Assembly: GCA_004022145.1 (NCBI GenBank)
Contig: RCNU01000005.1
DNA from: Paecilomyces variotii
Lineage: Eukaryota
Length of the DNA: 64,000 nt
Strand: one strand, 5' to 3'
A program made the position numbers. Within the stretch, counting starts at the first letter, position 1, and every line of letters starts with the position of its first letter. Positions 9,001-18,000 of this stretch are shown in pieces.

Positions 9001-12000
9001 TATTATGGTATTATTATTATTTTAGCAGTGAGATACAATTCTGCTATCTAGATAGGTAGTTGCGCATCTCTAGCTGTTAACATAGGTACTTATCAGAGGC
9101 AGATCATTCTCATGTCTTCGGTTCACTGTTAACACGTCCAAGATCACTGAAGCTGTCTGGCTATGTAGGATTGCAGGAGCTCTACAATCGCCTCATGTTG
9201 TTCCCGTATGGCAGCAGACAATGGCGAGTCCCCATCATTAGCTGTTGACATCGGGTCGACTTTTCCAGTTTCCAGCAGTAGTTTCACCACTCTCGGACGA
9301 CCGCGCTCTGCTGCATATCTTAAGGGTGTTTGTCCATAGATATCTTTCGAATCTGGATCGACCTTCCCTGTCTCAAGCAGTAGTTTTACTGCTTCATCAT
9401 GTCCACTCCGTGCTGCTTCCATCAGCGGTGTCCGGCCGTATTTGTTGTTGTGGTTCGGATCATATTCTCCAGTTTCAAGCAGTAGTTTGACCACAGCCTG
9501 GGTGCCGTTGTCTGCAGCAAGCGACAATGCTGTTCTGCCGTCGTCTGTCTCAGACTTCATATTGACTTTGCCGGTTTCAAGGAGCGCTTTCACCACTTCC
9601 AGGCGTCCGTTGTGTGCTGCGGTGTGCAACGCCGTCCAGCCGCTATTATCTTTCAATTCTGGATCAACCTTTCCTGACTCAATCAGAAGCTTCACCATTT
9701 CCGGCTGCCGATTCCATGCAGCTGTCTGCAATGGTGGCCAACCAAATGGGCCCTTGCTTTCCGTATCAATACCGTCAGTTTCAAGGAGCAGTTTTACCAC
9801 GGCCTGATGCCCCTCATATGCCGCATGAATTAAGGGCGTATCATCTTCTGCAGACCTGGGGTTTGGATCAACCTTTGCAGTGCGAAGTAGAAGCTTTACT
9901 ACTGCATCATGTCCAGTTGCTGCTGCCACTAACAGAGGTGTCACGCCGTACCTATCTTCCGTGACTGACTCTGGGTCGACTCTGCCAGTTTCGAGCAACA
10001 TCTTCACAATGGCTTCATGTCCATTCTTACAAGCGTATGATAATGGTCTCCACCCCTCTTTGGAGACTGAGTCCGGGTCGACTTGGCCGGTCCCAAGAAG
10101 TAGTTCTGCAATCTCTTTGTGCCCATTTTCTGCAGCATATGCTATTGGTGTCATGCCGAACTCGGGATCCTTTAGGTTCAAATCCGCTTTGCCAGTCTGA
10201 AGAAGCAGTTTCACAACCGCTTCGTGTCCACGCTCTGCAGCCCACAACAGGGAGCTCTTATCGAAATCATCGATGTAGCCCTTGTCGATTCCATTTTTGA
10301 TGAGCAGTTGTTGTACGACAACTTCAAGGCCGAAATAAGATGATATCGCTATTGCGGACGCCGGCTTCTCTAGCCTGCCAGTTTGTATCTGCTCCCAATG
10401 TGTGTCAAACCATGGGTAAAGGCGTGTGGTCTGTATTTGACAAAGCTCGAGGGCATCGCCTTGCATCGATTGATCAGCTACATCCTCTGCCTGTTGAAGA
10501 TGGATTGCCCAGTAGGCCGACGCATAAATCAAGAAGGATCGCTCGTGAGTGATCTGATCTGGGCTGCCTGGAATCGAGAGATCCCGATTATCAGGCTGGC
10601 TCTCTTCTAACCAATGTGGGAATTTGACGTAGGCCATGCAGCAGCCTGCTAACAACGCATGTGCCTGTTGAGTGCTGATCGAATGACGGAAGGCGGAAGA
10701 ATTCACGTCAGTAGTGCTGTTGGAGGTAGCAGATCCTATCTTTGGTAACAGATATTCCCTTGCAGTTTGGTGAAGAAAGTAAACCATGCCGTCGTCTATT
10801 GAGACAAACAGACCACAATACTGTCTCAGGCTCCTCTGGAATTCGCCGACAGGCTCGAGATCGAGGTCCCGCAGAGAGCTTGACGACCTGTCTGTTTCTA
10901 ACGCAATCTGCATCTCACCCGCGGTGAGAGGGCGATACGCAGTTAGAAGGATTTTGAAAATCTTCAATGCCCTCTCTTTGTCCTTTGACTTCTCCAAGAT
11001 TTTCTCATATGCATCGTCGAAGCTGACAGGGATATTGCTGAAGACCTTCTTTTGCATCTCCTTCTCTGTCAATTTTATCAACTCATTCTCGAGGTAGTCG
11101 AACACAAGATATAGCCAGAGATAAGTGCGATGCTTGATTTCCATCAGTCGTTTTTCCAGATAGTTAGCTGCGCCCTCTGTGAGACCTCGCTTCTGCTGAA
11201 ACTTGCGCACGCGATATCTAATGACTGCATTGATCTCATCGGCAATTCGAGGCGACTCATCTTCCCCAGGAATTCTCATATTGGGAAAAGCTTCGTCAAA
11301 TTCGTGAGTTATGTCCCCATATGGCCTACTTGTTAGTAGTATTTTGAGCTTCCCGCTCGCTGTTGACGCTCGTAGAAACTGACTTTTCAGGAATGATATC
11401 AATTTCTGGCGATCGTATCTGTCACACTCGTCTAGTGCGTCTAGCACAAAAATCACTTGACCTGCGTCTTCGTCCCTGGTAGCATTTTGGAGAATTTCCC
11501 ACAGCTTTCCTGGGATTTCTATGAGCTTTGGACCGTTCTTTTCCACAGCTTCAATTGCGTGTCGAACCAGTGAGGGCCTTTGAGACAACAACTGATGAAG
11601 CAGCGCGCAGAGCGCTATATGAACACGGGACTGGACTTGCTCCTTGAAGAAGAAGTAACAAATGACTGGTGGTTTCCCCGACTCATTTATACACTGCGGA
11701 AGTTCGCAGTCGATGAGATACTTGGCGAGCACGGATTTTCCGCAGCCAGGATCAGCAGTCACGAGGAGGATACCGGAATCATCTTTCAACCAGTGCTTGA
11801 AATTTTCTTGGTCCAAAAACCACTGGCAGGTCCCTCCGACCCTGTATTCGACGCGATACTTGAAGTCTTCGTATGTCAGCTTTTGTTCAAGTTCAGCACC
11901 AGACCCAGTAGTGTGCGTGAGGCGGAAGAGTTGAAGACAATCCCGCTCGTTTCTTGTCATCTTGCGTTCCGCCGTTTCTATGCTGAGCTTGAGAACCTTC

Positions 12001-15000: not shown

Positions 15001-18000
15001 AGGATTTTACATTCTCAACCTAAAAATGGGCTCAATAGATACTCTGGATAGTGATACTCTATCTCCTAGTGAGTGTTAAAGTGAAAAATACAACGAAGGC
15101 TACTAATACTTCTCAAAGATGGATCTCCGGGCGACATTGATGGAAATCTGGACACAGACGCTTTGGAATCTCTGGAGACACATGAACAACGACGTGTTCT
15201 AGATATTGTGTCTCAGTTACGCAAATGCGGACTAGACAGTGTCCTCTCCTTACCACAGCTAGTGGTCTGTGGAGATCAGTCAGCCGGAAAAAGCTCGGTG
15301 CTTGAGGCGTTGACGGGAGTCCCTTTCCCAAGGAAAGACAACTTGTGTACAAGATATCCAACTGAGATAATTCTAAGACGTGGCGTGTCGCACTCGCTCC
15401 AAATCAAGGTGATTCCCGACTCAGAACGATCCGCGGAAGATAAAACAACAATCGATGGATTTCGAGAAACGATCACTAGCTTTGACCAGCTCCCTGAGGT
15501 TATGGATAAAGCAAAACAATTGATGGGGATCGAAGGTGGAGGAGAGAGTGTCGGTACTCAACGAGCCTTTGCTCGCGATGTGCTCAGTGTTGAGATCGAA
15601 GGGCCAAACCTGCCGCAACTCACTGTGGTCGATCTGCCTGGAATCATACAGTCAGAGACAAAAGATGCATCCCAGTCAGATGTGAATATGACGGTCGAAA
15701 TCACAAACACGTATATATCGCAGCCGCGGACAATTTGTCTGGCAGTAGTTTCAGCGGCCAATGACTATGCCAATCAACCTATCCTCAACAAGGTCCGCCA
15801 GTTCGACCCGAAAGGCGAACGTACTCTGGGAATCATTACCAAGCCTGATATCCCCCCTCCAGGTTCGGAAACGGAAACTGCATTTCTTGAGCTGGCCAAA
15901 AATAAAGATATCTTCTTCGCGTTGGGATGGCACGTCCTGAAAAACCGAGAATTCAAAGAGGCTGGAATATCAATCCAAGAACGAAATCTCTCTGAGCAGT
16001 CTTTTTTCCGAAAATCAGCATTCGGCAAACTTCCAAAGGAACATATCGGAATTGGAAGTCTAGTAAATCGTCTCAGCAGTTTGCTTTTTACTCATGTTCG
16101 ACAGGAGCTTCCTAAACTTCAAGAAGAACTGGACGCTACCTTGCATGCCACGAAATCGGAACTTGATGTCATGGGTACAGCAAGGACCACCACAGATGAG
16201 TGCAGAATGTTCCTCTCCCAACTAGGTCTCAACTTCTACGAGATTTTCAAATCGGCTGTCAATGGTCATTACGAGGGAGATGACTTCAAGCCCGACCGGG
16301 GGCCTTTTTCACTCAGGCGTTTGACCTCAGTCCGCCGTCTACGTGCCGCAATTCAACTTATGAACCAACAGTTCGCAGAACGTATGCGCACACACGGCCA
16401 TAAATTTCAGATTCATGGTATGGGTGGTAATTCTACAAGCTCCGAAGCGTCAGAAGAGGATGAGGTAATAACGCGATCATTGGAATTTTTGGCAAATACC
16501 CTGACCTATCGACAATGTTTTTCGCACATCGAAAGGCCTCAAATACTTTCACATCGAGAAGGAGTGCAATGGGCAAATGACGTTGTAATCAGGGCGCGGG
16601 GACGCGAACTACTAGGCAATTTTAACCCTCTTGTGATTGCAGAGTTATTCTGGGAACAGTCATCGAAATGGAATCTCATCGCCGAGGCACATATAGATGG
16701 AGTATCAGACGTTTGCAGTACCTTCCTCCAGGAAGTTCTTAAGGACAAAGCGCCCTCGGACATGTACGCACGCATGTGGCCTATAATCCGTGAAAGGGTA
16801 AAGGCAAGACATAGGAGTGCGGTGGAGGAGCTTGAGAAAATCTTGAAAGATAACAAAAGCTATGTGATAAATTACAATCACTACTACACCGATACCATTA
16901 AGAAGCGGCAGGCCGAAAGGCAAAAAATCAAGTTGAGAGAATGTCTCGACAAGGCAGCGGCACCAGGAGGAAACCGTGAAGTTCTACCCGTTAATGTGAA
17001 CAAAGCTTTACATCTCTATTCAGAAGACATTGATCCTGGCATGGATAATCATAGCTCGGATGAAGTTCTCGACTGCCTTCTAGCAATATACAAGGTACAT
17101 ACATGTCTTTCCTTTAACACTTGAGATTATGGCTTACCAAAGTTCTCGATTCTAGGTCTACCAAAAAGTGTTCATTGCGAACGTGACAGTTCAAGTTGTT
17201 GAACGTCATATTGTTCAGGACCTGCAGCATATATTCTGTCCGTTGACCGTTGCAAAGATGTCAGATGCTGAGGTTTGCGCTCTTGTATCAGAGCCGGTTG
17301 TTAGTAAAAGGCAGAGAGAATTCCTGACAGCCCGACTTGCAAAGCTTGAAGAGGGCCGCGAAATACTCAAAGAAGTTATGTCAACGATGGTACAGTAATC
17401 TAATGATGATTTGTTTTCGGGGCTATTGGTTTTATGTTCGAAGTTATTGCTACAGGATCTAAGCGCAGGGCTGTAAACTAGACTCGGGTGTAGTCGTACA
17501 CCACGGATGATGGATTATTTGTTTGACATCCTTCTCCCTGCGATTAAGCCATATGCAAGGTTCCTATTTCAACACTATCCCTATTAGATCACTTATACCT
17601 AGAGTGTGAGGACCTGTGAGTTGGCGCGGAAAATATACAGTAGTGAGGCTGTATACGGCCGAATTTACACTCATAACTCCTAGCAGCAAGTCCCCACTTT
17701 ACTGTTAGCTCGGAGCAGGACTTTTATGGCATATTAGGACAAAGTTGTGACATATTTTGCATAGCAGGCTCAGTAGACTAAAGCAGCTCGATCTGGTGTA
17801 GAATACTAAATTGCATGTCTTTCTGGTCGTTACCGCGTCCTGCTTTTGGTGCTCGCTCTGCAGTCTTATTCAGATTGGCGACCACTAATGTTGGACCAGT
17901 CCCATTTTCTGTGAGCCCGTAAGGCGATTGAAGCCAGATTCAAACGATTCTATAGCCTTAGAAAGCGTATATAGTTCCCTATAACTAACGGATATCATAC

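Follow-up and report, generated by a model that had tools for sequence, protein, structure and literature searches.

A gene for a NOD-like receptor (NLR) standing head to head with a gene for a dynamin-family GTPase invites the question of whether the two proteins work as a pair. This question is raised by a locus in a 64,000-nucleotide stretch of the Paecilomyces variotii contig RCNU01000005.1 (hereafter the window), in which an NLR of the NACHT-ankyrin type (9144..12932, minus strand) and a fungal Mx-like dynamin, or MxF (15026..17398, plus strand), are divergent, their start codons facing away from each other across a common spacer. A first-pass annotation of this DNA had proposed that they form a cassette of sensor plus effector. 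Having followed up this proposal, we consider it probable that these are instead two independent immune-type genes that share one variable island among housekeeping genes: an NLR that strains can do without, and an MxF in which diversifying or balancing selection acts on the loops that putatively face a target.

An Mx-like dynamin and its stalk loops

The dynamin gene consists of three exons (15026-15068, 15119-17094 and 17156-17398) separated by introns of 50 nt (GTGAGT..AAG) and 61 nt (GTACAT..TAG) with canonical ends, and position 17398, where the first-pass annotation had placed its end, is indeed that of the stop codon. The spliced product of 753 amino acids is identical to the NCBI P. 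variotii protein P0002. It carries the GTPase motifs GDQSAGKS (G1, residue 66), DLPG (G3, residue 186) and TKPD (G4, residue 255), at positions that vary little or not at all among 88 relatives, and matches the Pfam models Dynamin_N (E 1e-34) and Dynamin_M (E 2e-21). In the AlphaFold model, which has a predicted local distance difference test score (pLDDT) of 78.4, a helical stalk (helices 326-396, 422-440, 493-558, 561-627 and 656-693) is accompanied by C-terminal helices, and there is no PH domain. The earlier description of an intact dynamin extending from G1 to G4 and a GED is thus accurate for the motifs and needs qualifying for the GED. The Pfam GED model finds no match, even at E 0.1, although the C-terminal helices are present in the predicted fold and 716-723 columns align with full-length MxA and MxB; with this caveat, the protein has a middle domain/stalk and GED-type C-terminal helices without a PH domain. 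Of the ESM Atlas clusters for which Pfam GED is listed, the two closest contain it in 42% and 58% of their members.

The suggestion that this is an accessory, Mx-like dynamin rather than a Vps1, Dnm1 or Mgm1 agrees with all three rankings that we obtained. Among solved relatives, a phmmer search with the single sequence scores Mx1/Mx2 at ~127-133 bits (full-length chains), ahead of Vps1 (104), Mgm1 (93), Drp1 (90) and dynamin-1 (83). HMMER with a profile of the 88 relatives gives 169.9 bits for Mx2 and 157-165 for Mx1, followed by Vps1 (125), Drp1 (115), Mgm1 (109), dynamin-1 (103) and OPA1 (84), and a Foldseek search with the model returns MxB first (4e-25) and then MxA. Because Mx tops the sequence, profile and fold rankings, the protein is an accessory fungal Mx-like dynamin, nearer to Mx than to Vps1, Dnm1/Drp1, Mgm1/OPA1 or classical dynamin, as judged by score ranking rather than by a tree. 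Several database sources label its relatives "related to Mx2" or "interferon-induced GTP-binding protein Mx". The family itself is already known: it was named MxF (MxF1/MxF2) in 2025, and passages of the naming paper (PMC11789081, PNAS 2025) describe it as uncharacterised and variable in copy number. No function has so far been shown for it.

The central finding of this study is that 13 MxF alleles of P. variotii, which are only 2-4% different along their backbone, are 34-48% different in two regions of the stalk. Region A (16264..16551, plus strand; residues 397-492) comprises loop L1, helix alpha1C and a long loop that is disordered in part, with a pLDDT below 50 for residues 450-474. Region B (16948..17040, plus strand; residues 625-655) is the loop between stalk helices alpha3 and alpha4. 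From the helix order of the model, rather than from coordinates, region A would lie in the place of Mx L1, alpha1C and L2, and region B in that of L4, which in MxA is a rapidly evolving specificity determinant according to PMC12047444. The confinement of the variation is apparent from the proportion of sites that vary across the 13 alleles. This is 7% (20/285) in the nearly invariant segment formed by the first bundle-signalling helix and the GTPase domain (15181..16035, plus strand; residues 36-320), rises to 41% in residues 397-440 and 69% in residues 441-492, drops to 20% in the alpha2 helix and 12% in the alpha3 helix, rises again to 64% (18/28) in residues 628-655, and is 7% in the alpha4 helix and 8% in the C-terminal part.

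The alleles were also compared within the species and between genera. P0002 and P0004, from the same species, differ at 16/551 backbone residues (2.9%), 30/87 residues of region A (34%), with indels, and 14/31 residues of region B (45%), while P0002 and its Aspergillus melleus ortholog differ at 25% of backbone residues, 58% of residues 397-492 and 71% of residues 625-655. From these two comparisons it follows that the loops of a single species have reached more than half of their between-genus divergence and the backbone about a tenth, and loop divergence is 12-15 times that of the backbone inside the species, versus only 2.3-2.8 times between genera. The loop classes are discrete and recombining: P0256 has a region A of the P0004 class together with a region B that closely resembles the P0002 form, and P0006 has a region B of its own type. 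At this locus, then, the catalytic and assembly scaffold is conserved, while the stalk loops are hypervariable and recombine, one of them lying at what is probably the position of the MxA specificity loop, and this suggests that the loops are subject to diversifying or balancing selection. While both gene families were known, we found no printed report, in the literature searched, of within-species loop hypervariability in a fungal Mx-like protein.

If selection is indeed responsible, the pattern offers a concrete and testable handle on MxF proteins as immune factors. With its GTPase domain, bundle-signalling element, four-helix stalk and lack of a PH domain, the protein most likely acts in an Mx-like manner: it would self-assemble via the stalk and engage a target via the loops at the stalk tip. 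Loops that vary from strain to strain would fit selection exerted by a target that itself varies, for example a mycovirus or another form of non-self.

Three observations on alleles and strains belong beside these. P0003 and P0246 show, relative to P0002, clean gaps of 14-17 residues in otherwise identical sequence (alignment columns about 330-350 and 440-460), which are more likely differences between gene models than real deletions. Intron 2 carries a 4-base deletion (17096) common to sequencing runs X10 and X11, and further small between-strain indels are found at 18221 and 18583, in the intergenic DNA toward the neighbouring triosephosphate isomerase (TIM) gene.

A probably dispensable NLR and its linkage to the dynamin

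The NLR gene is, as first described, an intronless NACHT-ankyrin gene, with an uninterrupted open reading frame (ORF) of 1262 codons whose product is identical to the P. variotii database protein P0001. From N to C terminus, the protein has a disordered basic N-terminus, a Goodbye-like NACHT_N domain (PF17100; 12042..12698, minus strand; residues 79-297; Pfam E 1.7e-61), a NACHT/NPHP3_N nucleotide-binding domain with the Walker A motif GCGKS (11316..11834, minus strand; residues 367-539; NPHP3_N E 2e-37, NACHT E 4.3e-06), a winged helix and about ten ankyrin repeats (9147..10352, minus strand; residues about 861-1262; Ank_2 E 3.1e-98, in several stretches). Pfam further matches DUF7069 besides the winged-helix domain, and the same domain sets are found in 120 listed relatives. 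The Pfam matches thus give the three-part layout of fungal NLRs, in which an N-terminal effector-type domain, a NACHT nucleotide-binding oligomerization domain (NOD) and C-terminal repeats follow one another. Passages of PMC9815663 describe NACHT_N as a Goodbye-like profile with a four-helix core common to HeLo/MLKL, whose function is still unproven, and the Goodbye-like class as a proposed cell-death module. An NLR of this kind may be complete in itself, the ankyrin repeats sensing, the NACHT domain serving as an oligomerising switch and its own Goodbye-like NACHT_N domain providing the output.

This NLR can be lost while the dynamin stays, as we found by aligning the contigs of four sequencing runs over positions 5600-21600 of the window. 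In the genome run X11 most of the gene is gone, with joints at 9344>9951, 10384>11019 and 11131>14189, the last of which takes out NACHT_N, NACHT and 1.26 kb of spacer and leaves ~840 bp upstream of the dynamin; the dynamin side is retained (14795-21600, differing at 190 of 6806 bases). A similar loss of the NLR beside a retained dynamin is seen in contigs of X15, an RNA-labelled metagenome run. The X15 contig over the dynamin runs on across TIM and RpiB with both introns unspliced, and since it keeps introns and spans three genes it looks genomic and is silent on transcription. Runs X21-X24 contained next to none of the sequence words sampled from the locus. A second coding allele, P0122, is 12-21% different in every domain, so that two coding alleles and a deletion (null) occur across strains, and the NLR would accordingly be a dispensable gene polymorphic for presence and absence. 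In strains that bear it, the block 8460-14344, comprising the NLR and half of the spacer, shows a divergence 4-5 times lower than that of the housekeeping DNA to its left and right. Run X5 has 24/5885 differences in this block (0.41%) versus 53/2849 to the left (1.9%) and 200/6785 to the right (2.9%), and run X10 has 54/4705 (1.1%) versus 93/2828 to the left (3.3%) and 127-145 per ~2.7-3.0 kb to the right (4.2-5.3%), with a Fisher p of at most 1e-10 in every comparison of block and flank. This suggests that the block is a recently spread or introgressed haplotype.

The two genes are not inherited jointly, and their alleles are not coupled. NCBI records of P. variotii hold at least 23 MxF proteins and 7 NLR proteins, a count confined to annotated proteins of 694-2209 amino acids. 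Consecutive locus tags of NLR and dynamin are found in four further strains (DTO212C5_9121/9120, DTO021C3_7562/7563, DTO271D3_2768/2767 and DTO271G3_1020/1019), as expected if a sensor and an executor were kept together. However, the NLR proteins P0241-P0243, which are 99.8, 99.3 and 99.4% identical to that of the window (3 to 7 amino acid differences over the aligned parts), stand beside dynamins as different from P0002 as P0255 (90.4% identical), P0256 (91.0%) and P0254 (a 681-residue model; 75.7%). One NLR allele therefore adjoins dynamin alleles of two classes, and both dynamin classes are found with and without an annotated NLR.

The spacer was correctly described as an AT-rich stretch of about 2.1 kb from which the two genes diverge (12933..15025, 2093 bp; GC 0.417 versus 0.482 for the window), and such an arrangement would fit a bidirectional promoter. 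It also contains dispersed repeats (14113..14856), detected by depth and contig counts in four runs, in all of which these sites have a depth of 500-2000 versus about 83, many contigs and loose ends. One repeat, of about 470 bp (~14113-14580), has roughly 6x depth, and a short element (~14733-14856), present in 24-38 contigs per run, lies 170-290 bp upstream of the dynamin ATG; neither has another copy within the window. Because of these repeats, the spacer is not a clean bidirectional promoter.

Nor is linkage a rule of the MxF family, as might be expected of orthologs of a true pair. A metagenome scan yielded 162 MxF relatives, of which 80 loci were kept and reduced to 46 non-redundant groups at 93% nucleotide identity, providing 431.8 kb of flanking DNA, with at least 2 kb on one side in 35/46 loci and at least 4 kb in 25/46. 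None of the 95 ORFs of at least 250 codons in the flanks of these loci, which are from other fungi and ~34-64% identical, encodes a NACHT or NB-ARC domain or has a match to residues 1-800 of the NLR, so that NLR-MxF linkage was seen in one species only and the adjacency across orthologs on which the first-pass annotation had staked the pairing is missing from this sample. Two further negatives carry little weight: the 120 best relatives of the NLR include none from the three Aspergillus species with the closest named dynamin orthologs, and 0/14 longer MxF relatives, most of which look like merged gene models, are fused to a NACHT or NB-ARC domain. In literature searches and look-ups in main texts we found no report of NLR-MxF pairing or MxF polymorphism, and the preprint 10.1101/721753 names dynamin domains in gene lists only.

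Competing explanations and surroundings of the island

Our reading of two independent genes in one island accounts for the loss of the NLR beside a retained dynamin, for the uncoupled alleles and for the confinement of MxF variation to two loops. Several points weigh against it. First, alignment next to indels inflates some of the loop differences, although roughly one site in three still differs in a stretch free of gaps, and allele variation was measured at the protein level. Second, in ten other MxF clusters (90% identity) the loops differ by 8.4% and 7.1% versus 2.3% for the GTPase domain; since this excess is only ~3x, part of the loop effect is low constraint, although the comparison is weak because clusters at 90% identity cannot contain diverged alleles. 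Third, the model of the NLR N-terminal domain, all-helical with a pLDDT of 67, has no specific fold match that would either tie it to MLKL/HeLo or set it apart from them (best Foldseek E 0.29), and VIA-align returns generic helical bundles only, with Z up to 10.2, which is under the level that the tool treats as meaningful for helical folds. Fourth, the NCBI record count misses pseudogenes, split models and unannotated genes, and the metagenome loci test a family-wide rule rather than a Paecilomyces-specific pairing. Finally, some constraint on linkage may persist, because the two genes have stayed adjacent in at least five strains, one of which carries the diverged pair DTO271G3_1019/1020 (NLR 76.7% and dynamin 84.7% identical).

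Among the alternatives, the locus might serve allorecognition, as a het-like or guard/guardee system in which the adjacent or another NLR triggers cell death on meeting a foreign MxF loop allele, which would resemble plp-1/sec-9 in Neurospora or hetE in Aspergillus fumigatus. Loop classes that are discrete, strongly diverged and subject to recombination, in proteins with nearly the same backbone, are what such a locus would display, and they resemble the "narrow footprint" that passages of PMC11138114 report for het genes of A. fumigatus. The NACHT-ankyrin gene, with its presence/absence polymorphism and diverged allele P0122, likewise recalls the hetE candidate of that species, for which the same passages give two coding alleles and a null. 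What is missing is co-variation of alleles between the neighbours: matched pairs as in plp-1/sec-9 are not seen, because dynamins of two classes are found beside one and the same NLR allele, and each class also occurs without an annotated NLR. We therefore regard this explanation as rather unlikely.

Equally doubtful is the notion that the loop variability has no functional meaning and merely reflects drift and the build-up of indels in two partly disordered loops under little constraint, within a species or species complex that is itself diverse. The species is indeed diverse: flanks differ by 1.9-4.2% among strains, and the 5.3% by which the dynamin piece of X10, taken as a whole, diverges does not clearly exceed the 4.2% of the TIM-RpiB side (p = 0.054). 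Moreover, the same loops are the least conserved ones family-wide and moderately more variable in other clusters, and the poorly modelled residues 450-474 fall within region A. Drift would nonetheless have to produce amino acid differences of 34-45%, which need several times the nucleotide divergence of the flanks. Even at the highest divergence, 5.3%, the neutral expectation is p = 0.117 per residue, and the loop counts exceed it (binomial 5e-7 and 3e-5). It would also have to explain why the loop/backbone ratio is several-fold higher within the species than between genera, and why the helical, well-modelled segment 397-440 is hit too, at 12/44 sites.

An explanation that combines elements of the above is that MxF is an immune specificity factor, whose loops at the L2 and L4 positions are kept as ancient recombining classes by balancing or diversifying selection from mycoviruses or conspecific non-self, while the adjacent NLR reads the state or allele of the dynamin. 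It would turn the whole island into a recognition locus, and we think it improbable in this full form.

The cassette of the first-pass annotation, in which the NLR senses a cue and a dynamin co-regulated from a shared bidirectional promoter executes a membrane-remodelling or antiviral response, agrees with the divergent orientation, the consecutive locus tags and the immune associations of both gene families in passages of PMC11789081 and PMC9815663, but we consider it very unlikely given the loss of the NLR beside a retained dynamin in X11 and X15 contigs, the uncoupled alleles, the absence of family-wide linkage and fusions, the effector-type domain of the NLR itself, the repeats in the spacer and the ~840 bp left of it in X11. 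Suggestive as it is, the adjacency of the NLR at this locus is no evidence of a sensor/effector pair.

The surroundings of the island are of a different nature. The flanking gene on the dynamin side, expected to be TIM-like, encodes a triosephosphate-isomerase family protein (18601..19569, minus strand; Pfam TIM E 1.2e-45). The gene on the NLR side, named as ACBP in the first-pass annotation, is recognizable as an ACBP-like gene with introns (8087..8906, minus strand) only through two exon-sized ORFs that weakly match both ends of Pfam ACBP (E 0.004 and 0.014). The remainder of the window consists of core genes (DHODH, Tdp1, ACBP-like, TIM, RpiB, GDI, SMC, GINS, ALG10 and ORC4), and because of this we rejected a Starship or other mobile-element context. 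A second NACHT-ankyrin gene (26523-29628, plus strand) lies in two overlapping frames (26523-27098 and 27079-29628), which could reflect an intron or a frameshift. It matches the NPHP3_N profile at positions 40-164 only, and no N-terminal domain for it was recognised in the ORFs at 24644-25645.

In the metagenome loci, the only recurrent neighbour of MxF is a second MxF copy, whose blastp cluster is found in 6/46 representative loci. Two MxF-type dynamins stand no more than 10 kb apart in L003 (the second at 7542-9500, minus strand; upstream and on the opposite strand), L033 (the second at 16803-18776, plus strand), L058, L059 and L073. Other neighbours are HET-domain ORFs (L049:7354-9363 and L074:14341-16293), a DUF3723 ORF (L003:16816-18366) and a helicase with AAA_11/AAA_12, CCCH fingers and an RZ-type zinc finger (L063:2178-7995, minus strand), a domain combination that recalls ZNFX1.

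Comparison with known systems

In systems of the NWD2/HET-S type, a fungal NLR and an adjacent effector share an amyloid motif. The window likewise has an NLR beside a candidate effector gene, but the N-terminus of its NLR holds a complete domain and not just a short motif. We rejected a shared amyloid-type motif between the NLR N-terminus and the dynamin, as no motif common to NLR residues 1-80 and the dynamin was found and the local similarity is no better than that of shuffled sequences (observed score reached in 146/300 shuffles). Head-to-head sensor/helper NLR pairs of plants are also divergent across a short shared spacer; the difference is that the NLR of the window faces a gene of another family. 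Pairs of NLRs arranged head to head are rare in Sordariales, accounting for 13/225 two-NLR clusters according to passages of PMC12258605.

Closer parallels exist among fungal incompatibility loci. The Neurospora guard pair plp-1/sec-9 (described in part in PMC11138114) also places an NLR beside a polymorphic gene for a cellular protein of conserved fold, but there the allele groups co-vary, whereas here one NLR allele accompanies two dynamin classes. As described in passages of PMC11138114, the hetE candidate of A. fumigatus, reported without functional validation, is likewise a NACHT-ankyrin gene with presence/absence polymorphism, a second diverged coding allele and polymorphic neighbours; the NLR of the window is, depending on the strain, present, deleted or 76.7% identical. 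In the text of that paper, "dynamin" and "GTPase" have 0 occurrences.

The relationship with MxF as described in passages of PMC11789081 is one of membership: the window dynamin, too, has Dynamin_N and Dynamin_M, lacks a PH domain and is closest to animal Mx by sequence and fold, and the local duplicates seen here in other fungi fit the copy-number dynamism reported there. That paper deals with phylogeny and copy number, to which the present analysis adds the hypervariable loops within one species and the neighbouring NLR; its main text does not contain "positive selection", "polymorphi" or "mycovirus", and "NLR" occurs in it solely within a reference title.

Human MxA and MxB are the most instructive comparison. 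There are clear differences. Full-length identity to the window dynamin is only 18-20%, the second hypervariable region here would be at the L2 position, the variation is among strains of one species rather than among species, and MxF is known here from its sequence and a model, with a putative antiviral role. To our knowledge, fungi have no interferon system. The likenesses are nevertheless extensive, since MxA and MxB provide the best full-length solved matches of the dynamin (4whj, 5uot and 5gtm), have a G1 of the GDQSxGKSS type and TKPD as it does, and carry at the L4 position the loop that probably corresponds to one of its two hypervariable regions. Should MxF prove to be an immune specificity factor whose loop classes are maintained by non-self, this locus would be a within-species fungal counterpart of the arms race fought over L4 of primate MxA.

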